Virus record (IMG/VR): IMGVR_UViG_2537562220_000015 | DNA: 12,078 nucleotides | Strand: one strand, 5' to 3' | Source of the DNA: a virus | Lineage: Duplodnaviria > Heunggongvirae > Uroviricota > Caudoviricetes | The notes under the pieces: generated by a model | Database searches by the model: none | The model's input: only the letters and a program-made list of their open reading frames with translations | What the model was told of the DNA's origin: nothing | Made by a program: the position numbers and the translations under genes | Part shown: piece by piece, positions 1-12,078 of the stretch | Position numbering within the stretch: the first letter of the stretch is position 1 | How the letters are laid out: each line of letters starts with the position of its first letter

Positions 1-348
1 TCCATCGACAAGACGCAATCTCTTTCCGCTTGTACAACCCGTAACTGCGGCGCGTACAGCAAGTGTTTGTGCGGCAAGTATGCCAAACCAGTCGGCGGCA
101 TTCCGCAGCCGCTTCAGGAGAGCCACGTCAGATAATGTTGCAACGTCATGGAGCTGAGCCCATGCAGTGACTTCACGTAATGACATCCCCCCGGGGCCGT
201 AAGCCAGCCCCAGACGTAGCAGAGTTGCAGCATCACGAATTTCGCGGCGGCGGGTTAGAGCCCCGGCATTACGTGCCGAAGTATCCAGTTCTTCGGGCTT
301 ACCAATATGGGCCAGAATTGCTGACCAGTTATCGTGAGAGTAATTCAT
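1..348 (-). CDS. insL: IS186 transposase, N-terminal ~116 codons (gene continues beyond window start)
   Basis: Reverse complement of 301-348 translates to MNYSHDNWSAILAHIG. The frame is open to position 1. It was not in the ORF track because it is cut by the window edge. Confidence 0.8.
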   Translation of the reverse strand, partial: MNYSHDNWSAILAHIGKPEELDTSARNAGALTRRREIRDAATLLRLGLAYGPGGMSLREVTAWAQLHDVATLSDVALLKRLRNAADWFGILAAQTLAVRAAVTGCTSGKRLRLVDG

Positions 349-380
349 CGGCACGTTAAATCATATCAGGCGTAATACCA

Positions 381-403
381 CAACCCTTAAGTTAGCGCTT
401 ATG
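381..403. repeat. IS186 terminal inverted repeat (element end)
   Basis: caacccttaagttagcgcttatg lies ~35 bp outside the transposase start, as expected for an IS end. It is followed by G/C-rich ggcattacccccgac, consistent with the known GC-rich target preference of IS186. Confidence 0.7.
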
Positions 404-494
404 GGCATTACCCCCGACAGATCACAAAGCAGACTGGAATGATTACCACCAAAAACACGGCATTAAATGCGCCACAGAAGCGTTCAATAAGTCA

Positions 495-2267
495 ATGTAC
501 CAACCACAGGGTAATGGCGTGAAACAGGAGCCACAGACCATTGAGGGAAGCGATTTTAAGGTTATGGATACCGACCCACTGAAACCAAGAATAGAAAGCC
601 GCGAGGATGGTATTTATTGGGTATCTCCGAGAGCTGACAGCCAGAGTGGAGAAATCATCAATAACGAAAGCTGGTTATGTTCTCCGTTAAGCGTTATCGG
701 TACTGGCAGAGACGATAAAGACCAGTATCTCATTCTTCGCTGGCTGTCGTTTGGTTCTGAAACGCCGACAACCGCTGCCATTCCACTGGCTGATATTGGT
801 GAACGTGAAGGATGGCGCACACTTAAAGCTGGTGGGGTAAATGTCACGACCAAAAGCAGCCTCAGAGCAATACTGGCAGACTGGCTACAACGCAGTGGCT
901 CTCGTGAATTGTGGCGTGTTGCTCATGCCACTGGCTGGCAATGCGGAGCGTACATCATGCCTGATGGGGAAATCATCGGAACACCTGAAAATCCTGTGCT
1001 GTTCAGCGGGAGAAGCTCAGCCGCAGCCGGATATACCGTCTCAGGGAGCGCGAAAAGCTGGCGTGATAACGTGGCGCGTCTGGCCTTTGGTAACTATTCA
1101 ATGATGACCGGGATCGGCGCAGCACTGGCAGCGCCATTGATTGGGCTGGTGGGCGCTGACGGGTTCGGCATTCATTTCTATGAGCAGTCGAGCGCAGGTA
1201 AGACCACCACGGCAAACGTGGCGAGCAGCTTATACGGCAACCCTGATTTACTGCGGCTGACGTGGTACGGAACCGCGCTGGGGCTGGCAAATGAGGCCGC
1301 CGCCCACAATGACGGACTAATGCCGCTTGATGAAGTTGGTCAGGGCGCTGATCCTGTCAGCGTTTCACAGTCTGCCTATGCGTTATTTAACGGTGTAGGG
1401 AAACTGCAAGGCGCTAAAGATGGTGGAAACCGGGATCTAAAACGCTGGCGTACAGTGGCAATCAGCACCGGAGAAATGGATTTAGAAACATTTATCGCTA
1501 CTTCCGGGCGAAAAACCAAAGCCGGGCAACTGGTGCGACTGCTGAATATTCCGTTGAGTAAAGCAGTACGCTTTCACGATTACCAGAACGGAAAACAGCA
1601 CGCAGACGCACTGAAAGACGCTTACCAGCATCACCACGGCGCGTCCGGGCGTGAGTGGATTAAATGGCTGGCACACCACCAGCAACAGGCTATTAAAACC
1701 GTTCGTGATTGCGAAAGCAGATGGAGAAGCCTGATCCCATCCGATTATGGTGAGCAGGTTCACCGTGTAGCCGCGCGATTTGCCATTCTGGAGGCCGCAT
1801 TGTTGTTAGGCGAGGTTGTAACAGGCTGGGATGCTCAGACATGCCGTGATGCGATACAGCACAGCTATAACGCATGGTTGCGCGAGTTCGGCACAGGTAA
1901 CAAAGAGCATCAGCAGATTATTGAACAAACGGAGGCATTTCTTAATGCCTATGGGCTTAGCCGTTTTGCACCATTTCCATACAGCCCGGCAGATTTGCCC
2001 ATCAAAGATTTAGCCGGATACCGTCAGCGTGGAGAACATGACGAAAGCCCAATGATTTTCTACACATTCCCGGCCACATTTGAAAAGGAGATCGCATGTG
2101 GTTTCAACGCAAAACAGTTTGCTGAAGTGTTGAAAAAAGCCGGGATGCTAACCCCACCAAACAGCGGTCGTGGATACCAAAGAAAATCACCACGTATTCA
2201 GGGACGACAAATAAACGTTTATGTACTCAATTACCAGCCAGGAGATTATAACTCATCTGAAGAATGA
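495..2267 (+). CDS. Replicative primase/helicase-like protein (phage P4 alpha-like / satellite Pri-Rep type), probably the 3' portion of an IS186-interrupted gene
   Basis: 590-aa ORF with a Walker A-like P-loop (GIHFYEQSSAGKTT) about 225 residues in, then a long C-terminal region as expected for a DNA-binding/origin-recognition domain. The frame is open with no stop from the IS186 end (404) to the ATG at 495. No convincing SD precedes the ATG. Confidence 0.6.
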   Translation: MYQPQGNGVKQEPQTIEGSDFKVMDTDPLKPRIESREDGIYWVSPRADSQSGEIINNESWLCSPLSVIGTGRDDKDQYLILRWLSFGSETPTTAAIPLADIGEREGWRTLKAGGVNVTTKSSLRAILADWLQRSGSRELWRVAHATGWQCGAYIMPDGEIIGTPENPVLFSGRSSAAAGYTVSGSAKSWRDNVARLAFGNYSMMTGIGAALAAPLIGLVGADGFGIHFYEQSSAGKTTTANVASSLYGNPDLLRLTWYGTALGLANEAAAHNDGLMPLDEVGQGADPVSVSQSAYALFNGVGKLQGAKDGGNRDLKRWRTVAISTGEMDLETFIATSGRKTKAGQLVRLLNIPLSKAVRFHDYQNGKQHADALKDAYQHHHGASGREWIKWLAHHQQQAIKTVRDCESRWRSLIPSDYGEQVHRVAARFAILEAALLLGEVVTGWDAQTCRDAIQHSYNAWLREFGTGNKEHQQIIEQTEAFLNAYGLSRFAPFPYSPADLPIKDLAGYRQRGEHDESPMIFYTFPATFEKEIACGFNAKQFAEVLKKAGMLTPPNSGRGYQRKSPRIQGRQINVYVLNYQPGDYNSSEE

Positions 2268-2285
2268 GCTTCTTCATGTGCGTAG

Positions 2286-2403
2286 AAAAGGTGTTGGTTC
2301 AGTTGGTTCAGTTGGTTCAATTTGTAAAGTGTATTGTTTTATAAGGATTTTATTCTTTTTATTGAACCAACACTGAACCAACAACACGGTATTTTGAACC
2401 AAC
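2286..2403. repeat. Iteron cluster 1: three tandem 9-bp GTTGGTTCA repeats (2293-2319), AT-rich spacer, three inverted TGAACCAAC copies (2363-2371, 2374-2382, 2395-2403); candidate origin/operator
   Basis: Direct reading of the sequence. It sits immediately downstream of the primase/helicase gene, the position where satellite and plasmid replicons commonly place an iteron origin. Confidence 0.7.
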
Positions 2404-2723
2404 ACAATGTGACTGAATTGATGCGCACAACACCTGGCTGGCATCAGAGAGTGTTTTACGAGACTTTCGTAAAATCCTGTGTACAAGGGCGTGACGTTTT
2501 TGAAAGTGAGCACTACGAAATTTTCGTAGTTCAAAAAACAGCCTCTGAGAAGTTGTTATGCCTGTTCAGCAAACCATCCGCATAGCTGATCGCGAATCAA
2601 ATTACCAATGGAGCCAGAAGCAAGGGCAGAACTGAAAAGCGCCTGCCGTGAAGAGTAATGCGACACCATAAATATAGTTTTTAGAGTCCATAAAAAACCT
2701 GTCAAAACCTGACACACAGAACG

Positions 2724-2757
2724 ATGCCACCAGCTACTGAGCGGTGGCATTTTTTTG
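2724..2757 (+). terminator. Rho-independent terminator
   Basis: Perfect 8-bp stem ATGCCACC/GGTGGCAT (2724-2731 and 2743-2750) with an 11-nt loop, followed by TTTTTTT (2751-2757). It is oriented for plus-strand transcripts. Confidence 0.6.
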
Positions 2758-2851
2758 TGCTATTTGTTTCATATTTTGCAATTACTATGATGAATATTGC
2801 GATTTGTGAAACTATAATAACTGTTGTTTTATACAGTTCTAAGGGGGCGTT

Positions 2852-3013
2852 ATGGCTATTTCAGTAAAGCCGGTATTGATAAGTGAGAAGCAAATGGAAG
2901 CGATAAAGAAAATTCAGGAAGAGCAGCGTAAAAAATCAGGAATTGGAGTAGCGCCAACTCTGCATGAAATTGCACGAGGGTTAATAGATAAGGCGCTGGC
3001 AGGCTGTATGTGA
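2852..3013 (+). CDS. Small hypothetical protein (53 aa), possibly a ribbon-helix-helix-like DNA-binding protein; first gene of the downstream operon
   Basis: ATG at 2852 is preceded by a strong SD (AAGGGGG, 2841-2847) at ~5-nt spacing; stop TGA at 3011-3013. It translates to MAISVKPVLISEKQMEAIKKIQEEQRKKSGIGVAPTLHEIARGLIDKALAGCM. It is absent from the ORF track, presumably because it is short. An AT-rich promoter-like region lies upstream (2760-2840). Confidence 0.4.
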   Translation: MAISVKPVLISEKQMEAIKKIQEEQRKKSGIGVAPTLHEIARGLIDKALAGCM

Positions 3014-3029
3014 AAATGGATGGCATCGC

Positions 3030-3491
3030 ATGGAACTAAAATTTATTGATAACCCTGTGCGATTACAGGCCTTTCTTAACGATCCTGGCAATACCGAAAA
3101 TATTGTTGAGCCGGGGCACACGTACTACATCAAGCCTGATGCGGTATATCTCGGCATCTACGAAGGATTGGTGTTGGCTGGCGTTCATGAAGTGCGTAAC
3201 TTCTGGCATAGCATTGTTGAATGCCATGCGGTGTACGACCCCGGATTCCGTGGTGAATATGCACTGCAAGGGCATCGGTTATTCTGCAAATGGCTTCTCG
3301 AAAACTCACCATTCCTTAACAGCATTACCATGGTTCCTGACACCACCAAATACGGACGGGCAATTATCCGTTTGCTTGGCGCTACCCGTGTTGGTCACCT
3401 TGATGATGCTTATATCAGATGTGGTAAACCCGTCGGCGTAACGCTTTATCAGTTAACTCGGCAACAATATAAGGAATTCAGCGAATGTTAA
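3030..3491 (+). CDS. Phage head-assembly/ejection-associated protein, P22 gp14-like (tentative)
   Basis: 153-aa ORF 16 nt after the small ORF. Its stop overlaps the start of the next gene. The assignment rests mainly on its position directly upstream of the gp7/gp20/gp16-like trio, which matches the P22 gene order 14-7-20-16. Confidence 0.5.
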   Translation: MELKFIDNPVRLQAFLNDPGNTENIVEPGHTYYIKPDAVYLGIYEGLVLAGVHEVRNFWHSIVECHAVYDPGFRGEYALQGHRLFCKWLLENSPFLNSITMVPDTTKYGRAIIRLLGATRVGHLDDAYIRCGKPVGVTLYQLTRQQYKEFSEC

Positions 3492-4162
3492 TTACCCACA
3501 TAGCTCATAAACATCTCAATCGTGCCGTATACGAAAAAGGCGGTGATGGTGGTGCCTCTAAAGCTCAGGCGAAGGCCCAGCAGCAGGCAATTGATTTGCA
3601 GCGCGAGCAGTGGAATACGGTGATGAATAATCTCAAGCCGTATGCAGAAGTCGGATTGCCTGCTTTACAACAACTACAAGGACTGATGACTCTGGAAGGG
3701 CAGAATAAAGCCGCGAATGATTTCTTTGGTTCTGGTTTATATAAAACACAGGCAGATCAGGCCCGTTATCAGAACCTTGTCTCAGCAGAAGCTACCGGGG
3801 GGCTTGGCTCAACAGCTACCAGTAACCAGTTATCTTCCATTGCGCCCATGCTTTATAACAATTGGCTTAGTGGGCAAATGCAAAATTATGGAAACCTGCT
3901 AAATGTCGGGATGAATGCGGCATCAGGGCAGGCAACAGCAGGGCAAAACTACGCCAATAATACCGGGCAACTCTTGCAGGGGCTTGGCGCTATTCGAGCA
4001 GGTCAGGCGCAGCAGCCATCCAGTCTTGCGCGTGGTATTGGTGGGGCGGCATCAGGCGCTTTAGCGGGTGCGCAACTTGGTTCCGTTGTTCCGGGTATAG
4101 GTAATGTCGCCGGGGCTATTGGTGGTGGGCTTATTGGTCTTGTTGGGGGGCTTGGATTCTAA
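3485..4162 (+). CDS. Phage ejection (DNA transfer/injection) protein, P22 gp7-like
   Basis: 225 aa, close to the size I recall for P22 gp7 (~229 aa). Gln/Ala-rich N-terminal part and Gly-rich hydrophobic C-terminus (GIGNVAGAIGGGLIGLVGGLGF). The stop overlaps the next start (TAATG). Confidence 0.65.
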   Translation: MLITHIAHKHLNRAVYEKGGDGGASKAQAKAQQQAIDLQREQWNTVMNNLKPYAEVGLPALQQLQGLMTLEGQNKAANDFFGSGLYKTQADQARYQNLVSAEATGGLGSTATSNQLSSIAPMLYNNWLSGQMQNYGNLLNVGMNAASGQATAGQNYANNTGQLLQGLGAIRAGQAQQPSSLARGIGGAASGALAGAQLGSVVPGIGNVAGAIGGGLIGLVGGLGF

Positions 4163-5583
4163 TGGCGACATGGCAACTTGGCGGGCTGCCTAGCATGGCA
4201 CCGCAAAATGATAATGCTCCTCGTTCTTCCGTTCCTCAGCCTGTGCAGTATCAGCAGCAGCCAAACGTAGGTTTAATGGCGCTACAGGGGCTAAGAGGCG
4301 TTGCTGAGATTAATCAGCAGGCACGTCAACAACAGCGTAAAGCAGAGTTTCAGAAAGCATATGCCGGGGCTTTTGAGTCTGGAGACAGAAACAAAATGCG
4401 CAGTCTTATTTCTGAGTATCCAGAAGAATTTGAAAGCGTTCAGAAAGGGATGGGCTTTATTGATGACGACCAGAGAAATTCTATTGGTCATCTTGCGACT
4501 AGTGCTCAAATCGCATCTTCGCTCGGAACTGGGGCATTTGGAAAATTCATAGCAGATAACGAAGATGAAATGCGTCGCTTGGGAATTTCTCCTGAGTCTG
4601 TTGCCGAAATGCATGTTAATGATCCACAGGGATTCCAGCGGCTTGCTGGTAGTATGGCACTGTTTTCTCTCGGTCATGAGAAGTATTTCGATATCAAAGA
4701 TCAAATGGAAGGTCGGGATATTGAGCGTGGCAAGTTGGCAGAAACAATCCGCAGCAATCAGGCTGGCGAAGCACTTCAGGCGAGAGGGCAGGATATTAGC
4801 CGAGCAAATGCGTTAACGTCAGCATATGCACCAACAGCAGCAATGCAGAATTACAATCAGTACGCTCAAATGTTAAAGGAGGATCCAGAGGGGGCGGCGG
4901 CATTTGCGGCAGCGGCTGGAATTAATACAAACGCCAAAAAATTAATGAGTGTTAGAGAAAACGATGATGGCACTGTCACAAAATACTACACAGACGGAAG
5001 TGAAGAGCAGGGAAAACTAACCCAGCCAATATCTGGAGATGGGTTTCGTCCAATAGCTTTGCCAACAGCCCAAAAGATCATGGAAAAGTCGCCAGAAGGG
5101 GCTAAAAAAGCTGCTGGATTTGCATACAGGGTTAGGGATGCTCTTGATTCAATAGATACACTGAAAGACCAGCTTAGCCCACAGCGAGTGGCGATCATTA
5201 ATAATGCTTTGGGTAATGGGACGTTGGCTAACTTAACGCTCAGCCCAACAGAGCAGCAATACGTTGTTAATGCTAATGACGCAATAATGGCAATACTCCG
5301 TCAGGAAACAGGGGCAGCTATCGTACCTGCTGAAATGTCAAAATATTATCAAATGTATTTCCCTCAGCCTGGCGACTCCACAAAAACCATTGATACCAAG
5401 CGCCTGAAGATGGAAAACCAGTTCAATTCGCTGAAAGCTGCTTCTGGTCGAGCTTATGATGCTTTGCGGGTTATTTCAGCAGTTGACAGAGGAACTTCTT
5501 CTTCGTCGCAGACATTGCCGCAATCTGAGCAGGTATCACAGCCAGCAGCCAGCAGTAACTTTTCTTCACTATGGGGTGATTAA
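4162..5583 (+). CDS. Phage ejection (DNA transfer) protein, P22 gp20-like
   Basis: 473 aa, close to the size I recall for P22 gp20 (~471 aa). Translationally coupled at both ends (TAATG overlaps at 4160-4164 and 5581-5585). Codon usage matches its neighbours. Confidence 0.65.
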   Translation: MATWQLGGLPSMAPQNDNAPRSSVPQPVQYQQQPNVGLMALQGLRGVAEINQQARQQQRKAEFQKAYAGAFESGDRNKMRSLISEYPEEFESVQKGMGFIDDDQRNSIGHLATSAQIASSLGTGAFGKFIADNEDEMRRLGISPESVAEMHVNDPQGFQRLAGSMALFSLGHEKYFDIKDQMEGRDIERGKLAETIRSNQAGEALQARGQDISRANALTSAYAPTAAMQNYNQYAQMLKEDPEGAAAFAAAAGINTNAKKLMSVRENDDGTVTKYYTDGSEEQGKLTQPISGDGFRPIALPTAQKIMEKSPEGAKKAAGFAYRVRDALDSIDTLKDQLSPQRVAIINNALGNGTLANLTLSPTEQQYVVNANDAIMAILRQETGAAIVPAEMSKYYQMYFPQPGDSTKTIDTKRLKMENQFNSLKAASGRAYDALRVISAVDRGTSSSSQTLPQSEQVSQPAASSNFSSLWGD

Positions 5584-7688
5584 TGGCTAAAGCATGGAAA
5601 GATGTTATCGCCTCTCCACAGTATCAGGCGTTAGCACCAGAACAAAAAGCGCAGGCTCAGGAGCAATACTTCAATGAAGTCGTTGCCCCGCAAGCCGGAG
5701 AAAGTGTAGAGCAGGCTAAGCAGGCTTTTTATGCTGCCTATCCACTACCATCAACGAATGAAATAGACCGAGCCCAATCAGCAACTCAAAATATTCAACA
5801 TACATCATCTGATAATTCTCTTGCGTCAGGGTATGCAAAGTTAGCTACTCAGCAAAGAGAGGGGCTTGAGCGTTCAGCAGAACAGGGAGCCAGCCTTGGG
5901 GCTGCGATGCGCGATGCTATAACAGGCGAAAGCCGAATGACTCCAGAGATGGAGAGACTGCAAAATGTCGACCTTGCCCCAGAGTTAACCTCACTCAGCA
6001 TGGATGCTCTAAAAGCTCGATGGTCTCAACTTTTCGGCTCTGACGCATCTCAGGAAAAGATTCTTCAGAGCATGGGAGCGAAATTAAGGCAGGATGAGAA
6101 GGGTAACACTATCGTTTCCCTGCCATCCGGTGATTATGCTCTGAACAAGCCGGGTTTATCGCCGCAAGACGTGGCATCGTTTCTGGCTAATGCGCTGGCG
6201 TTTACACCAGCGGGCAGGGCCGGAACGGTGCTGGGGGCCATAGGGAAATCAGCAGCTACAGATTTAGCACTACAGGGAGCCACCAGCCTCGCTGGTGGAG
6301 AAGATATTGATCCGTTACAAACGGTAATTTCTGCTGGCATTGGTGGTATTGGTAAGGGGCTGGAAAATACAGCGAGTGCGGTTTCGAGGGCTGTTCGTGG
6401 TGATATGTCGCCTGAAGCAAAGGCTGCTGTCGACTTTGCATCGGAAAGAAATCTGCCGTTAATGACCAGTGACATGCTGAAAGATAAAACCTTTATGCAG
6501 AGTCAGGCTCAGACATTAGGCGAAAGAGTTCCTTTTTTTGGAACCGGTAAGAATCGGCTGAATCAACAACAAGCACGAGAAAATTTAGTCAGAACATTTA
6601 GCGATGGTCTGGGTGGCATTTCTGATAAACAGCTTTATGAATCTGCGACTAAAGGGCAACAAAAATTCATTGAGGCAGCAGGAAAGCGATATAACCGCAT
6701 AATTGACGCTATGGGGGATACCCCTGTCGATCTCTCAAACACGGTAAAAGCTATCGACAATCAGATTGCTGTGTTAAGCCGCCCGGGTAAATCTCAGGAT
6801 AGAGCCGCGGTAAAAGTCTTGCAGCAATTTAAAGACGATATCACCAGCGGACCAAATGACCTGCGTCTGGCGAGGGAAAACAGAACCGATCTTCGAAAGC
6901 GGTTTATGGCGTCATCTGACACTGTTGATAAAGATACGCTCCAGAAAGCCAGCGATATTATCTACAAGGCATATACGGCGGATATGAAAAAAGCCGTAGC
7001 CAAAAATCTTGGAGCAGACGAAGCCATTAATATGGCAAGGGTTGATCGCTCATGGTCTAAATTCAATGACATGATGGGAAGAACGCGCGTTCAAAAGGCA
7101 ATAGCCAGCGGCAAGGCCACGCCTGAGGATGTAACAAAACTCGTTTTTAGCCAAAGCCCATCAGAACGTTCTCAGCTTTACAGGCTTCTGGATGACAATG
7201 GTAGGCAAAACGCACGAGCAGCCATAGTTCAGAATGCTGTAGATAAGGCGACTGATCCGTCTGGAAATATCAGTGTTGAGAAGTTTATTAATGCGTTACA
7301 CCGGAACAGGAAGCAATCAGCAACTTTCTTTAAAGGCGTACATGGAAAGGAACTGGACGGCGTTATTAAATACCTCAACGATACAAGACACGCGGCAAAA
7401 GCGAACGTTCAAAACTTAAATGGTCAGCAGCTTTATGGATTGTTAGTTGGTGGTGGCATCATAAACGCAGCAGTATTAGCGGGGATGCTAAAAACGGCTG
7501 CGTTTGTTGTTCCTGCTGCTGGTGCCGTAGGCGGAGCAGCGAAGGCATACGAAAGCCCTGTTATACGAAATGCCTTGTTACGTCTGGCAAATACGCCAAA
7601 AGGTAGCACAGCATATGACAGAGCGATCAGTACGGTCACACAATCGCTCACCAGAGTCGCACAGGCATCACAAAAAGAAGCTCAATAA
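5583..7688 (+). CDS. Phage ejection (DNA transfer) protein, P22 gp16-like
   Basis: 701-aa ORF, last of the coupled gene set. It has a Gly/Ala-rich hydrophobic segment near the C-terminus (LLVGGGIINAAVLAGMLKTAAFVVPAAGAVGGAAKA). Its position after the gp7/gp20-like genes matches the P22 order. Confidence 0.65.
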   Translation: MAKAWKDVIASPQYQALAPEQKAQAQEQYFNEVVAPQAGESVEQAKQAFYAAYPLPSTNEIDRAQSATQNIQHTSSDNSLASGYAKLATQQREGLERSAEQGASLGAAMRDAITGESRMTPEMERLQNVDLAPELTSLSMDALKARWSQLFGSDASQEKILQSMGAKLRQDEKGNTIVSLPSGDYALNKPGLSPQDVASFLANALAFTPAGRAGTVLGAIGKSAATDLALQGATSLAGGEDIDPLQTVISAGIGGIGKGLENTASAVSRAVRGDMSPEAKAAVDFASERNLPLMTSDMLKDKTFMQSQAQTLGERVPFFGTGKNRLNQQQARENLVRTFSDGLGGISDKQLYESATKGQQKFIEAAGKRYNRIIDAMGDTPVDLSNTVKAIDNQIAVLSRPGKSQDRAAVKVLQQFKDDITSGPNDLRLARENRTDLRKRFMASSDTVDKDTLQKASDIIYKAYTADMKKAVAKNLGADEAINMARVDRSWSKFNDMMGRTRVQKAIASGKATPEDVTKLVFSQSPSERSQLYRLLDDNGRQNARAAIVQNAVDKATDPSGNISVEKFINALHRNRKQSATFFKGVHGKELDGVIKYLNDTRHAAKANVQNLNGQQLYGLLVGGGIINAAVLAGMLKTAAFVVPAAGAVGGAAKAYESPVIRNALLRLANTPKGSTAYDRAISTVTQSLTRVAQASQKEAQ

Positions 7689-7706
7689 CTGGTAGCCATG
7701 GATGGC

Positions 7707-8321
7707 TTAGATATCTCTGCTGTCTCCATTAGGAAATAAAAGATAATATGGATTTGCCTTTCTTGCTCTCCTTGCTTCACCTGGATACCTGTTAGTCAGT
7801 AGTTTGCATAATGAGCAGAGAACAACACTCAAGAAAATTCCGAATGAGAAGATCAATATCTCACCAAAAATCAATGGCGATATTAAATTTTCAGGATTTA
7901 ATGATAAGTCAATGTTAAAAACATATTGAGCAATACCAGTAAGTATCAATAATATAATCCCTATGGAATACATTGCTGTTTCCCAAACATCAGACAGTCT
8001 ATTTTTGAATTGTTCGCTGGAGTAGTAGTTTGTTATAAAGTCAGAAAAATCACTCTCATATGCATCATCTTTAGGTGATGTTAGAAATCCTCTGTCTCTC
8101 CATACCTTCTCCCAATTAGTCGATTCTTTTTTTAAGGAAAAATAAATATGTATTGCCAAAAGGATAGCCAAAATTGGTGTTAGCTCTAAAAAATAGAATG
8201 TTATGGAATAAATAATACTGCCATGTTCAAACTCATCTGGGACTATCATGTATGCACAAAAATAAATTGAAAAGTACACCATGCAGATAGTTAGCAATTC
8301 TTTAGTATCTTTTCTGCTCAC
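7707..8321 (-). CDS. AT-rich multi-pass inner-membrane protein; candidate superinfection-exclusion or abortive-infection effector
   Basis: 204-aa ORF with a GTG start at 8319-8321 preceded by a strong SD (AAAGGGGG on the coding strand, ~5-nt spacer). It has at least four hydrophobic helices and a ~70-residue charged loop. GC content is clearly lower than the flanking genes (roughly one third by eye versus about half). It is convergent with the ejection operon, 18 bp from its stop. Confidence 0.6.
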   Translation of the reverse strand: MSRKDTKELLTICMVYFSIYFCAYMIVPDEFEHGSIIYSITFYFLELTPILAILLAIHIYFSLKKESTNWEKVWRDRGFLTSPKDDAYESDFSDFITNYYSSEQFKNRLSDVWETAMYSIGIILLILTGIAQYVFNIDLSLNPENLISPLIFGEILIFSFGIFLSVVLCSLCKLLTNRYPGEARRARKANPYYLLFPNGDSRDI

Positions 8322-8538
8322 ACCAACCCCCTTTAGCGTTGTTTAGAATGGCAATCATCATATATCCAAGACATGGCATTTGGTACATAGCTTGGGTCGG
8401 GATTTCAAATCCGATCCCCGTTGATGGGGCCGTTACAGTACGCGCATATCCGCTTTATGTGAAACAGGAAGATTTTTCTGATATCACTGCCACAGCAAAA
8501 CACCAATTTCGTGACCAGTACGCGCGCGAGGGGTATCA

Positions 8539-8557
8539 GTTGCAAAAATTTTGCAAC
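8539..8557. promoter_or_regulatory. Near-perfect palindrome GTTGCAAAA-A-TTTTGCAAC (9-bp arms around one central base); candidate operator
   Basis: Read directly from the sequence. It is flanked on both sides by copies of the GACCAGTACGC(G/A)C(G/A)CG motif (8513-8528 and 8565-8580). Confidence 0.3.
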
Positions 8558-9066
8558 TACGTCCGACCAGTACGCACACGATGGCGGGGGATACCATGAA
8601 ACTGTTCTCTACACGAGACAGAGTGGTGGTGATGTGTTGATTATCGGCGTATATGCGCACAGGACGCGCTATGACGATGTTTTATGCGGGTACACCAATC
8701 ACATGTATCTGATGTGATAAATCGTGTTACATGACATCTCATGTTGTGCTGGTGGTTATCACGACGTTCTGAATCTGGCCTTTGCCTGATATTTTGCGAC
8801 AAGTACGCGCGCGTAGCATCGAAATTATCGGATGGCGTATGCTGCTGGCAATATGAAGACCGATAGTATTAACCGAAAAGCGATTAAGGAGTGCCAACTT
8901 TTCAGTAGAGAAACTAGCCAGCATAGGAAAATGTAGAAATTACCCAATTAATAGGTAAAAGTTATTGACACAGCCTGTAGTGGATAACGATATGAATAAA
9001 AACCACATATAGTGGTTTTTCGTGAGTGATGATAGTATCTATGTTAGTTTCCTAAGTAACTGTGCA

Positions 9067-9095
9067 TTGACATGTGGATAACTTCGGATAGAGTT
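9067..9095 (+). promoter_or_regulatory. Putative sigma70 promoter for the Abi_2 gene (TTGACA-N16/17-TAGAGT) with an embedded DnaA-box-like TGTGGATAA
   Basis: TTGACA at 9067-9072 and TAGAGT-like -10 around 9089-9095. TGTGGATAA (9073-9081) is the exact complement of the DnaA box consensus TTATNCACA. A similar TTGACA...GTGGATAAC module recurs at 8965-8988. Confidence 0.25.
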
Positions 9096-9190
9096 ACAGG
9101 CAACCGAGCCCGATCCTCTGTTTCTCCGCCGCCGATTTTAGGCATGTGAGTTTCACGGTCGGGCCTTTTATTATCTTTTGTTTCGCCACT

Positions 9191-10168
9191 ATGATTGCCG
9201 CAAAGCCTCATAAGGACTATCACGAATTGCTAGGATTGCTACTTGAACGTGGCATGATTATCAATGATCGAAATCGTGCGATACGTAAGCTGTCGCAGGT
9301 TGGATATTATCGATTGTCAGGTTTTTGGTACCCATCAAGAATTATTGCGACAACAGATAAAGGTCTTTCGTACAGAACAGACCGATTTCTTGCTGGTACC
9401 AGTTTCGAGAAGACGTACGATCTATATCTTTTTGACAAAAAACTGCGTCTTTTGATGATTGATGCTATCGAAAGAATAGAGATTCATGTTCGTTCAGTCA
9501 TCGCGCATGAGGTTGGTCGCAATGATCCACTTGCCTACATGTCATCAAAATACATTAATCCAAAATTCTCATCTGCCTTCGAGCATTGGGTGTATAAGCA
9601 AAAAGTAAAATTAGACGAAAGCAGAGATGACTGTATTGAATGGCATCGAAGCCAAGGCAAGGAGATTCCATTTTGGGTGGCGGTGGAGACCTGGGATTTT
9701 GGTCAGATGTCTAAATATTATGCGATGCTTAATGGTCATATGCATGGGAAAATTATACGTCGTTTTGGCATTGATAATAAGCAGACATTTGCAAAATGGT
9801 TGAAGTGCCTTAATCTCATAAGGAATCGTTGCGCTCACCATTCCAGAATATGGAATAGAAAGCATCCCCGAGTTCCAGTACCGGATAATGAATACTTTGA
9901 CGGACTTAATCTCCATCCAGAGAGTTGCGAGAGGATTTTTAGCGCGATCTGTATTATCTGGTACTTAGTTAAACGACTTGGTCCGGGATCAACATGGCTT
10001 CGGCAAATTGCAGACCTTATTGACTCTAAACCAAATGTTCCCGGATGTGGATATGATTCAATGGGTTTACCTGCTAAAGGATTCCCACGAGAGAGATTCT
10101 CTCAGGACTTAGGTTTTGTTATCGCCGACAACGACCCTGTAGCTGAAGGGCGGAAAGGGAGCGATTGA
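9191..10168 (+). CDS. Abi_2 family (AbiD/AbiF-like) abortive-infection protein with a HEPN-type Rx4H motif
   Basis: Contains NLIRNRCAHHSRIWNRK, the conserved Abi_2/HEPN signature as I recall it (R-x4-H within RNRCAH). The N-terminal region KDYHELLGLLLERGMIINDRNRAIRKLSQVGYYRLSGFWYP matches the AbiD-family N-terminal pattern. I prefer the ATG at 9191 (MIAAKPHKDY...) over the longer track ORF starting at 9146, whose 15 extra residues are hydrophobic and not family-like. Neither start has a clear SD. Confidence 0.7.
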   Translation: MIAAKPHKDYHELLGLLLERGMIINDRNRAIRKLSQVGYYRLSGFWYPSRIIATTDKGLSYRTDRFLAGTSFEKTYDLYLFDKKLRLLMIDAIERIEIHVRSVIAHEVGRNDPLAYMSSKYINPKFSSAFEHWVYKQKVKLDESRDDCIEWHRSQGKEIPFWVAVETWDFGQMSKYYAMLNGHMHGKIIRRFGIDNKQTFAKWLKCLNLIRNRCAHHSRIWNRKHPRVPVPDNEYFDGLNLHPESCERIFSAICIIWYLVKRLGPGSTWLRQIADLIDSKPNVPGCGYDSMGLPAKGFPRERFSQDLGFVIADNDPVAEGRKGSD

Positions 10169-10197
10169 GCGATAAATATCATTTATACACTGATCAA

Positions 10198-10638
10198 TTA
10201 CTGAAGCAGCGTATTGATTCTTTTAATATTGTTACCCTGACGCTTCCACGCGCTGTAAATGTCTTTATCCCACGCTTTACCAGCTTTTGTTTGGTAGCCT
10301 GCTTCATTGAGCCGTTCCGCTATCACACGCCCATTATCAAATCCCTGTCGGATGGTATCGGCAATGATCTTTATAACTGCCGTTTCGTTATATGGCTTTG
10401 GTGGGATGTTCGGCTTTCCGGCAATAAGCGACGCAGCGGCTTTTTCCATGCGCTCCACCAGCCCAAGCATTCGTGAATCAATAGACTTTTCCGGCTGTCC
10501 CAGCTTCATGCGAATCGCATCAACAAGCCAGGAGGTTTTATCCCCTCCAGAAGCGAGAACAGACCGATTAAACTCATCCTGCAATTCAGATGGGATGCGG
10601 AACGCGACCAGATTAGATTTGCTCATTGCAAAGACCAT
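10198..10638 (-). CDS. Ribbon-helix-helix (Arc/Mnt-like) transcriptional regulator with a C-terminal extension
   Basis: The N-terminus LVAFRIPSELQDEFNRSVLASGGDKTSWLVDAIRMKL follows the Arc/Mnt RHH pattern (beta-strand, helix, G-containing turn, helix). The ~90-residue C-terminal extension contains a GYQTKAGKAWDKDIY segment reminiscent of recombinase/regulator DNA-binding modules. It is convergent with the Abi_2 gene (29-bp gap). Confidence 0.6.
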   Translation of the reverse strand: MVFAMSKSNLVAFRIPSELQDEFNRSVLASGGDKTSWLVDAIRMKLGQPEKSIDSRMLGLVERMEKAAASLIAGKPNIPPKPYNETAVIKIIADTIRQGFDNGRVIAERLNEAGYQTKAGKAWDKDIYSAWKRQGNNIKRINTLLQ

Positions 10639-10657
10639 ATCAGTGAGTAATATCCAT

Positions 10658-10687
10658 ACAGTATACCACTGTATAACACTGTTATAC
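10658..10687. promoter_or_regulatory. Three tandem ~10-bp repeats (ACAGTATACC / ACTGTATAAC / ACTGTTATAC) in the promoter region of the RHH gene; candidate autoregulatory operator
   Basis: Read directly from the sequence, 20-50 bp upstream of the RHH start. RHH repressors typically bind tandem or inverted short repeats. Confidence 0.35.
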
Positions 10688-10740
10688 GCTCAAATATCAG
10701 CCAGAAAATAACGGACCAATCACAAAGCTATCGCTGTGTT

Positions 10741-10868
10741 GTTGGTTCAGAGCTGGGCTGTGTTGGTTCAAAATGAGTTGATGTTGGTTCAATATTTCAG
10801 AAAAAACACAATAAAAACAACGATCTTTACAAATTGAACCAACTGAACCAACTGAACCAACACCTTTT
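10741..10868. repeat. Iteron cluster 2: three spaced GTTGGTTCA copies (10741-10749, 10762-10770, 10783-10791), AT-rich spacer, three tandem TGAACCAAC copies (10835-10861). Region 10825-10868 is the exact reverse complement of 2286-2329
   Basis: Direct comparison: the reverse complement of 10825-10868 is aaaaggtgttggttcagttggttcagttggttcaatttgtaaag, identical to 2286-2329 (44/44). The whole cluster is organised as the mirror image of cluster 1. Confidence 0.75.
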
Positions 10869-10897
10869 TGCTTATCTATATAATCTGAGAGGCAGAA

Positions 10898-11185
10898 ATG
10901 ATAAGGGACAGGAAAGCTGAAGAACTGGAGTCAAAAGGGCTATACCGGAGAGCTGCCGCACGATGGGCAGAAGTCATGATGCTGGCAGATGGCGATAAAG
11001 AACGTGAACATGCAGCAAACAGACGCTCTGAATGTATCCGTAAGGCGGCACGCCCACCAGCAACTACAGACAGATTCGGAGATTTAAGACAGGCAGTTAA
11101 GCGGACTCATTCGGCTCTTGGTATGGATGAGGAAGCGAGAGGGTATTTCAGGCGTTATCGCGATAAAGATTGCCAGAGACAGTAA
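10898..11185 (+). CDS. PerC-family transcriptional regulator (PerC/Pch-like)
   Basis: 95-aa ORF with an SD (GAGAGG) 5-8 nt upstream. MIRDRKAEELESKGLYRRAAARWAEVM... resembles the N-terminal signature of PerC/Pch activators of EPEC/EHEC (a conserved ...ELE.KGL(Y/W)RRAA.RW.(E/D)VM motif, from memory). Confidence 0.6.
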   Translation: MIRDRKAEELESKGLYRRAAARWAEVMMLADGDKEREHAANRRSECIRKAARPPATTDRFGDLRQAVKRTHSALGMDEEARGYFRRYRDKDCQRQ

Positions 11186-11258
11186 TGCTCTCTCTGTTTT
11201 GGCAAATTACCCCTCACTTTGAAGGGATCGGAGCTATAAAAATGGTGTTATCCGGCTT

Positions 11259-11276
11259 CCTGCATTGCAGGTTTTC
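11259..11276 (+). terminator. Weak candidate intrinsic terminator downstream of the PerC-like gene
   Basis: Short hairpin CCTGC-att-GCAGG followed by TTTT (11272-11275). The stem is short, so this is tentative. Confidence 0.25.
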
Positions 11277-11667
11277 GAAAGAATCAATGGGTTAGGTTAT
11301 CGTGCAAATTTGCACTCTGCCAGCCAACGCAATTTCTCGTTGGCGGAAATATCAGGTATTTACTGAACGAACGGTCTACCCGCCTGTTCAACTACCAGTT
11401 GTACATGGCTGCTTTATGTGCAAATGGTGGTGAGAGAAAATTGTTTGGGGGTACTTTTGGGGGTATCTCCAAAGATGTAACTGGAAAATGTCTTTATATA
11501 TCAATGTATTTTTATTGTTTGTTTTGTTCCTATTATCGCCATTAAAATCAAAGAGTTACCCCATATTTAAATACACCACGTTTCCTCCTGTGCCGTATTT
11601 GTGCCATTGTAACCTTGGCAATTCATCAAAATACTGTTCTGACATCAGGCAGTGCAGGTGCAGACAT

Positions 11668-12078
11668 TTAAGCCAATTGCTGCCGCCATTCTTTGACGTA
11701 GTCAATCAGGGCGCGGAGCTTTGGTGCAATATTGCGACGCTGTGGGAAATACAGATAGAAGCCCGGAAATTGTGGAAGAAAGTCATCAAGCAGCGATACA
11801 AGCTTACCGCTTTCAATATATGGCCTGAAAGTTTCCTGAGTGGCAATTGTTATTCCTCCGCCGGCAAGAGCCAGCCTCAACATCAGACGCAGATCATTAG
11901 TCGTAATCTGCGGTTCAATCGCAAGGTCGAAAGTTCTCCCGTTTTCTTCAAATGGCCAGCGATAAGGCGCAACCTCCGGGGACTGACGCCAGCCGATACA
12001 CTTATGGGTATTTCCCCCGGAGGCGAGAAAGCGCTCTCCACGCCCGGCCGCAAGGATCAGGACGACGGGGGCAGGCAT
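11668..12078 (-). CDS. LysR-family transcriptional regulator, C-terminal substrate-binding portion (gene starts beyond the window end)
   Basis: ...FDLAIEPQITTNDLRLMLRLALAGGGITIATQETFRPYIESGKLVSLLDDFLPQFPGFYLYFPQRRNIAPKLRALIDYVKEW is a typical LysR C-terminal effector-domain pattern. The Met at the window edge is probably internal. It is likely a chromosomal core gene at the island boundary. Confidence 0.6.
   Translation of the reverse strand: MPAPVVLILAAGRGERFLASGGNTHKCIGWRQSPEVAPYRWPFEENGRTFDLAIEPQITTNDLRLMLRLALAGGGITIATQETFRPYIESGKLVSLLDDFLPQFPGFYLYFPQRRNIAPKLRALIDYVKEWRQQLA

Follow-up and report, generated by a model that had tools for sequence, protein, structure and literature searches.

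What is encoded by the small, AT-rich gene that lies directly past the ejection-protein genes in the virus record IMGVR_UViG_2537562220_000015 (Caudoviricetes), and what could it do for the element that carries it? The 12,078-nucleotide (nt) stretch of DNA analysed here, referred to as the window, contains this gene on its minus strand. An earlier note, made from the DNA alone, had proposed by its position after gene 16 that its 204-amino acid (aa) product plays a role like that of SieA, the superinfection-exclusion protein of phage P22. Our analysis supports this proposal. As judged by sequence comparison the protein is a divergent, unannotated SieA homologue, and as a member of that family it probably blocks the injection of DNA by P22-like phages at the inner membrane, a function carried over by analogy from SieA types A and B. 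The gene and its start are described as follows.

7707..8321, minus strand: sieA-like coding sequence, 204 aa, WP_000087355.1 (annotated 'hypothetical protein'), predicted inner-membrane protein with four transmembrane (TM) helices

8319..8334, minus strand: GTG start (8319-8321) with Shine-Dalgarno (SD) sequence AAAGGGGG (8327-8334), forming the 5' boundary of an exchangeable cassette

The coordinates of the open reading frame (ORF) are exact, with a TAA stop at 7707-7709, and the strong SD sequence that the earlier note had seen ends 5 nt before the GTG. Comparison supports this GTG as the true start: three variants of the island in which the gene resides are identical across the 5' untranslated region (5'UTR), the SD and the letters GTGA and diverge directly after; the same GTG is used by PGAP for another cassette (locus L024). 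The ORF is carried at at least 99% identity in 103 complete Escherichia coli genomes, which confirms that it is real and that its features lie well beyond chance, and it is intact in 102 of the 103. Carriage amounts to 1.9% of E. coli genomes and is in every case within a mobile island. With the assignment to SieA, a protein listed as 'hypothetical' in all 103 carriers, O26 and O111 strains included, receives a name and a function that can be tested.

Several comparisons bear on the relationship to SieA. In BLASTP searches the protein aligned with P22 SieA at 29% identity over 108 aa (E=8e-8) and with the SieA of the E. coli prophage HS1 at 34% over 118 aa (E=2e-9), and the family PHROG 7745, 'SieA-like', matched aa 91-186 (E=4.4e-4). 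Profile-profile comparison of its clade with type A by hhalign gave a probability of 96.1% (E=3.3e-9). Since membrane proteins can yield similarity from composition alone, shuffle controls were run with a hidden Markov model (HMM) built from SieA types A and B only. The protein scored 50.6 bits with this model, against a best score of 10.3 among 1000 global shuffles, 12.4 among 1000 shuffles that preserved TM and loop segments, and -4.9 for the reversed sequence. PF26849 (SIEA) proteins were also recovered when HMMER was run exhaustively with the clade profile. The module common to the protein and SieA consists of the end of a cytoplasmic loop (YSSE..NR.SD), a TM hairpin and a post-hairpin NRYPGEAR..K. 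The view that no similarity to SieA or to any known family could be recognised is therefore no longer tenable, as BLASTP, hhalign, PHROG 7745 and the HMM all match SieA, and the idea of an undescribed exclusion effector gives way to membership of a known family.

The protein is missed by Pfam, NCBIfam and PADLOC, scans of which gave nothing above threshold; the copy of Pfam that was scanned has no SIEA model (PF26849) and left P22 SieA itself unmatched. In precomputed tables PF26849 is assigned to types A and B and to an Aeromonas fusion protein, and a '-' stands for the clusters of our protein, of its Citrobacter relative and of most Providencia-type relatives, two Providencia-type clusters carrying the match. 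A PDB sequence profile search gave no hit below E=0.1. Homology to a housekeeping transporter was also looked for, and none was found at threshold. That the protein is such a transporter, or a subunit of one, can be regarded as effectively refuted: the only matches in its favour are below threshold and driven by composition (MnhB, 15.7 bits for a cutoff of 22.5; TIGR00943, 13.9 for a cutoff of 139.75; and DUF1634), and against it stand the lack of any curated family at threshold or of any fold or sequence match in the PDB, and the confinement of the gene to mobile islands, in 1.9% of E. coli genomes.

The predicted architecture of the protein is also that of a SieA, and the features on which this statement depends are listed below.

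7800..8297, minus strand: four predicted TM helices, aa 9-27 (8241-8297), 37-61 (8139-8213), 116-136 (7914-7976) and 148-174 (7800-7880)

7989..8027, minus strand: family motif YYSSEQFKNRLSD, aa 99-111, with N107, R108 and D111 invariant or nearly so; predicted cytoplasmic end of TM3

7758..7793, minus strand: C-terminal family motif NRYPGEARRARK, aa 177-188, with R178, P180 and A183 invariant or nearly so; predicted cytoplasmic

An AlphaFold model, hydropathy and the positive-inside rule all lead to the same count of four TM helices, in keeping with the minimum of four hydrophobic helices noted earlier; the charged loop, previously put at about 70 aa, is shorter, with about 54 aa (aa 62-115; 8 K/R and 11 D/E), and is predicted to be cytoplasmic. 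The AlphaFold model, from a 37-sequence alignment, has a mean pLDDT of 89.1 and a pTM of 0.75 and places the helices at residues 3-30, 36-66, 105-141 and 150-176. Counts of K/R in the successive segments (3, 0, 8, 0 and 6) lead to a topology with both termini inside, in which the N-terminus, the charged loop and the C-tail are predicted to lie in the cytoplasm and the two periplasmic loops to have only 9 and 11 residues. Localisation to the inner membrane is likewise predicted. This topology agrees with that published for types B and C, which carry one additional TM helix at the N-terminus and have that terminus in the cytoplasm (PMC10883804).

A cytoplasmic SieA motif, FxRYPxEAxxFNK, has been published (PMC10883804), and NRYPGEARRARK is its counterpart in our protein. 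The core of this motif and that of the pre-hairpin motif ..S.E...NR..D are retained, as TNRYPGEARRARK and YYSSEQFKNRLSD respectively. The family alignment (37-38 sequences) shows no variation at N107, R108, R178 and P180 and at least 90% conservation at D111 and A183, and the motifs hold down to 34% identity. All six residues are predicted to lie at the cytoplasmic ends of the TM3/TM4 hairpin. Their predicted position on the cytoplasmic face offers a mutagenesis map for how SieA blocks the conduit formed by gp16 and gp20.

The position of the gene points in the same direction. In P22 the order is 14-7-20-16 on the plus strand followed by sieA on the minus strand, and this arrangement, strands included, recurs in the window, in line with the positional argument of the earlier note.

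3030-3491, plus strand: gp14-like DUF2824 gene

3485-4162, plus strand: gp7 gene (P22_gp7, E=2e-72)

4162-5583, plus strand: gp20 gene (Inj_translocase, E=5e-58)

5583..7688, plus strand: gene-16-type ejection protein, 701 aa, 30% identical to P22 gp16 over 482 aa (phrog_770, E=2e-161), convergent with the sieA-like gene across an 18-nt gap

P22 SieA, the type A protein (164 aa; PHROG 7745, Pfam PF26849 'SIEA'), is encoded on the opposite strand directly past gene 16, as is our protein, with a gap of 22 nt in P22 and 18 nt in the window, and both genes have a GTG start and are AT-rich (GC 0.34 and 0.33, respectively). The C-terminal modules of the two proteins are homologous: a cytoplasmic loop that ends in ..S.E.F.NR..D is followed by a TM hairpin and RYPGEA. 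They differ in that P22 SieA has one N-terminal TM helix and WP_000087355.1 has two, so that its N-terminus is predicted to be cytoplasmic; aligned to P22 SieA it has about 28 extra residues at the N-terminus and about 9 at the C-terminus, it has RRARK where P22 has NGFNK, and its carrier is an island instead of a P22-like phage. The type B protein of prophage HS1 (212 aa) resembles it in species, in the slot past gene 16, in its four TM helices and cytoplasmic N-terminus, and in NRYPGEAR..K, but shows no detectable similarity to its N-terminal 80 or so residues. Type B is much nearer to type A (E=9e-23 over the full length) than our protein is to either, and type B clusters carry PF26849 matches whereas the cluster of our protein has none.

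Low GC had been taken in the earlier note as a sign of recent acquisition. The difference itself is clear, the gene having a GC content of 0.328 (0.302 at third codon positions, GC3) where gene 16 has 0.477, the spacer upstream 0.444 and the window as a whole 0.462. The same contrast between the sieA-slot gene and gene 16 is seen in P22 (0.337 and 0.499), HS1 (0.363 and 0.471), Citrobacter (0.380 and 0.500) and Providencia (0.355 and 0.428). Because every sieA-slot gene compared is AT-rich, low GC was rejected as a marker of recent arrival and is an old trait of the SieA family; it is the sharp homology boundaries described below that show cassette exchange.

From the homology to types A and B, the predicted topology and the position of the gene, we infer that the protein would block DNA injection. 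HS1 SieA excludes P22-like phages (Leavitt et al. 2024, PMC10883804). Experiments on types A and B have established that SieA alone suffices for exclusion, that it resides solely in the inner membrane, and that it prevents infection-triggered K+ release and lysogenisation while adsorption is unaffected (PMC10883804). Although the two types share no more than 24-28% identity, their exclusion phenotypes are indistinguishable (PMC10883804), so that SieA function appears to tolerate the degree of divergence seen in our protein. In the sequence of events that we infer, which takes in expression, localisation and phenotype, the protein would be made constitutively and at a low level from the resident element and would insert into the inner membrane. 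[quoted passage not shown] Phage DNA would then never reach the cytoplasm, adsorption and other phage types being unaffected, and the cell, hence the carrier island, would be protected instead of a complete prophage. If so, carriage of the gene could limit P22-like phages in the typing or therapy of E. coli.

T4 Imm is a small envelope protein that blocks DNA entry after adsorption. HK97 gp15, Tuc2009 Sie2009 and TP-J34 Ltp (cited in PMC10883804) are also small envelope proteins of prophages or phages that block DNA entry once adsorption has taken place, and their likeness to our protein is functional only. All four act on long-tailed or T-even phages, via the tape-measure protein or other targets, and no sequence relationship between any of them and our protein was detected.

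The relatives of the protein help to define its place within the family. A word-indexed search found almost only E. coli sequences and a 50%-identical Citrobacter protein, and the exhaustive HMMER search found 41 representatives. The clade comprises proteins of E. coli, Citrobacter freundii (50% identical) and Serratia fonticola (40%), together with proteins of 195-201 aa (32-35% over the full length, with the same architecture) from Providencia rettgeri, P. alcalifaciens, P. huaxiensis, Proteus mirabilis and Morganella morganii; all members are annotated as 'hypothetical'. In a neighbour-joining tree (200 bootstraps) the E. coli, Citrobacter and Serratia proteins form a group with 100% support, which is joined with the Providencia/Morganella group, again at 100%, apart from types A and B. 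The Providencia/Morganella/Proteus sister clade is, from its genus range and protein length, probably the 'type C' of Leavitt et al. 2024; the published type C sequence cluster includes Morganella KT MU9_2893 and Providencia alcalifaciens HMPREF1563_1315 and has an N-terminal extension of about 40 aa and a C-terminal one of about 10 aa (PMC10883804). Since the SieA proteins of E. coli and Salmonella are stated in that study to be of type A or B, the branch that contains our protein appears to be undescribed there, and the family gains a deep branch in Escherichia, Citrobacter and Serratia.

No relatives turned up in two scans of species-representative genomes. A tblastn search of 50,697 phage genomes gave no match, so that prophages and islands are the only known sources of the clade. 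In Citrobacter the homologue is placed between gene 16 and the mnt/arc/ant/tailspike genes of a complete P22-like prophage, the Providencia homologue (34%) occupies the same sieA slot of a complete P22-like prophage, and homologues in two further IMG/VR loci (L019 and L021) are also in the sieA slot of such prophages. Two 199-aa clade members (L018:574-1173 and L020:9995-10594; about 35% identical) are found directly downstream of a CI-type repressor gene, on the same strand, in lambdoid prophages, which is another position expressed in lysogens and distinct from the classical sieA slot. Relatives of the gene follow mnt or cI on the same strand.

In Aeromonas the family is also represented by fusion proteins, P0048 of Aeromonas salmonicida (430 aa; L012:10001-11293) and P0041 (277 aa). 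Both begin with a signal-like segment, behind which lies a domain 63% (P0048, E=1e-19) or 52% (P0041) identical to the first 54 aa of the gp16 of the window (5583-5744), and this gp16-N-like domain is followed by a type-A-like SieA module with three TM helices. They reside in small int/AlpA/YfjJ islands and not in prophages. The gp16-N-like domain may be a periplasmic decoy that would tie SieA action to ejection-protein contacts. A strict co-occurrence of the N-terminal gp16 motif with the clade of our protein was considered and rejected, the gp16 proteins of Citrobacter and Providencia having other N-termini. SieA is therefore met outside complete P22-like prophages in three settings, namely the capsid-less island described here, behind cI repressors, and in the small Aeromonas islands.

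Comparison of island variants also identifies the sieA-like gene as a cassette that can be exchanged within a fixed slot for expression, and two further features are required to follow this argument.

7694..7707, no strand assigned: palindrome AGCCATCCATGGCT between the convergent stops of gene 16 and the sieA-like gene, where homology of the island variants resumes, forming the 3' boundary of the cassette

8322..8883, minus strand: upstream region, 95-99% conserved in about 600 E. coli genomes regardless of cassette, the presumed shared 5'UTR and promoter region

Many islands match the window at 97-98% identity in the flanks but have another gene in the slot. In DNA alignments the boundaries of the swap are precise to the base, with the shared 5'UTR, SD and GTG on one side and the palindrome past the stop codon on the other, and it is because of these sharp boundaries that we speak of a cassette. 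The slot holds the sieA-like gene in 103 genomes (all at least 99% identical), a gene for a 129-aa multi-TM protein in 229 and one for a 145-aa secreted protein in 126. Alternative cassettes lie at L022:9805-10194, L023:9851-10288 and L024:12828-13226, and the secreted protein (132 or 145 aa) belongs to phrog_2651. Neither of the two alternatives has homology to SieA; both are envelope proteins and may be other entry blockers.

The SD region of the window has a 2-nt deletion relative to the AAAGGGAGGG of other islands, which shifts an upstream ATG (8356-8358) out of frame; where this ATG is in frame, a 218-aa product is called by PGAP. The only consensus-like sigma-70 site upstream, TTGCCA-16-GATAAT at 8851-8824, is not above shuffled expectation, and a promoter/terminator scan and Rfam gave nothing above chance. 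Remnants of mnt, arc, ant and gene 9 are absent from the spacer at 8322-9145. The roughly 560 bp at 8322-8883 contain no supported gene and no immI remnant, and may be a regulatory region or hold a small gene; one genome annotates a 123-aa ORF on the plus strand (L023:10278-10649), which has no family matches.

In complete genomes the gene lies in an integrative island of about 19 kb, inserted at tRNA-Thr by proA or at a second site near yicG/ligB. The order of the island is integrase, AlpA-like helix-turn-helix (HTH) protein, antirepressor, Ash, TOPRIM-DUF927 primase, gp14 and gp7 (in some variants only), gp20, gp16, the slot gene, variable cargo and PerC; some variants retain only gp20 and gp16 of the ejection genes. 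Positions 1-11300 of the window belong to it, and further examples are L001, L005 and L022-L025. Of 5426 complete E. coli genomes, about 605 carry a member of this family, which occupies at least two integration sites, and no coat, portal, terminase or tail genes (gene 9 included) are found in the island. Its gp20 and gp16 genes are under purifying selection, with ratios of non-synonymous to synonymous substitution (dN/dS) of 0.31 and 0.15; gp20 and gp16 are the pair that must be matched (Leavitt et al. 2024, PMC10883804). The setting thus differs from the published SieA cases, being a capsid-less, primase-bearing island with P22-type ejection genes in which a cassette is swapped exactly between SD plus GTG and stop.

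Against the reading of the protein as a SieA that blocks injection by P22-like phages a number of observations must be weighed. Significant alignment to types A and B is limited to the C-terminal 110 or so residues, the N-terminal 80 or so with two TM helices being without detectable similarity, and FxRYPxEAxxFNK is only partly retained in TNRYPGEARRARK, with F replaced by T and FN by AR. The precomputed Pfam tables give no PF26849 match for the cluster, and of the remote-homology and structure searches, profile comparison found SieA but Foldseek comparison of the confident AlphaFold model with BFVD and the PDB gave no match at E<=1e-3 and hence no independent structural support. The host element is not a P22-like prophage, having no gene 9, coat, portal or terminase. 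The upstream scan showed no convincing promoter, and an end of IS421 (IS4-family) at positions 1-424 truncates the TOPRIM-DUF927 primase gene, of which the C-terminal 590 codons (495-2267) are left in frame. With its primase gene cut in this way, the copy of the island in the window is probably unable to replicate autonomously.

A first rival reading is a membrane protein of SieA fold whose target or role has shifted, either to another phage group or to the gp16 and gp20 of the island itself or of a helper phage, for example in telling island-type from helper-type proteins. The capsid-less island that keeps gp20 and gp16 under purifying selection, the occupation of the slot by unrelated envelope proteins in other islands and the N-terminal half unrelated to types A and B would fit such a shift, and the Aeromonas fusions with a domain like the N-terminus of gp16 show that other modes of contact with ejection proteins can arise in the family. 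However, types A and B have the same broad specificity at about 25% identity, and near relatives within the clade sit in the ordinary sieA slot of ordinary P22-like prophages. On balance we regard a shifted role as unlikely.

Still less probable is a gene that has lost its activity or expression and persists as a relic in a mosaic element undergoing decay. The lack of a promoter above shuffled expectation, the 2-nt deletion in the SD region and the broken primase gene would be in keeping with decay, and selection within the species is not measurable since all E. coli copies are at least 99% identical. Decay is difficult to reconcile, however, with an ORF that is intact in 102 of 103 genomes, with family motifs conserved down to 34% identity, with an upstream region conserved in about 600 genomes and with adjacent ejection genes under purifying selection. 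A SieA-family protein acting on DNA injection remains the preferred reading.

The island could be a satellite of P22-like phages. We found no description in the literature of an island or satellite with ejection-protein genes, and a search for SieA papers later than 2024 yielded only surgical ones. A wider and speculative idea, which we think rather unlikely as a whole, is that the 19-kb island is not a dead prophage but an unrecognised satellite of P22-like podophages with its own matched pair of gp20 and gp16. The slot after gene 16 would then be a hot-spot of interchangeable entry blockers, and the SieA-like cassette would control which sets of ejection proteins can deliver DNA, possibly sparing particles with island-type gp16 and gp20.

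Beyond the slot, the right-hand part of the window contains the variable cargo region and the end of the island.

9146-10168, plus strand: Abi_2/AbiD-family abortive-infection gene (Pfam E=8e-52; PADLOC AbiD E=3e-57), in the variable cargo region of the island

10198-10638, minus strand: 146-aa protein adjoining the PerC gene

10898-11185, plus strand: PerC-family transcriptional activator (E=3e-33), kept at the right end of the island in all variants

11668-12078, minus strand: truncated LysR-family gene beside paoABCD, the right-hand chromosomal junction of the island, in the CP4-6/thrW region

The first of these genes bears on the suggestion, raised earlier as an alternative to exclusion, that the sieA-like gene encodes the membrane effector of an abortive-infection system, here together with the Abi_2/AbiD gene. 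The AbiD-family gene is only about 0.8 kb away, and small membrane proteins are common as abortive-infection effectors. Yet the two genes are divergent and separable: an identical cassette is found without the Abi gene (L025; H36 and H37) and the Abi gene without the cassette (H50), so that linkage between them was rejected. Our protein has no PADLOC match, and its homologue SieA blocks DNA entry without killing the cell. An abortive-infection role is accordingly very unlikely, no evidence in its support having been obtained.

In other island variants the cargo region holds ImmA/IrrE plus unknown genes, or an HTH gene, and it looks like a second defence hot-spot. PerC/Pch homologues control virulence genes in enteropathogenic and enterohaemorrhagic E. 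coli.

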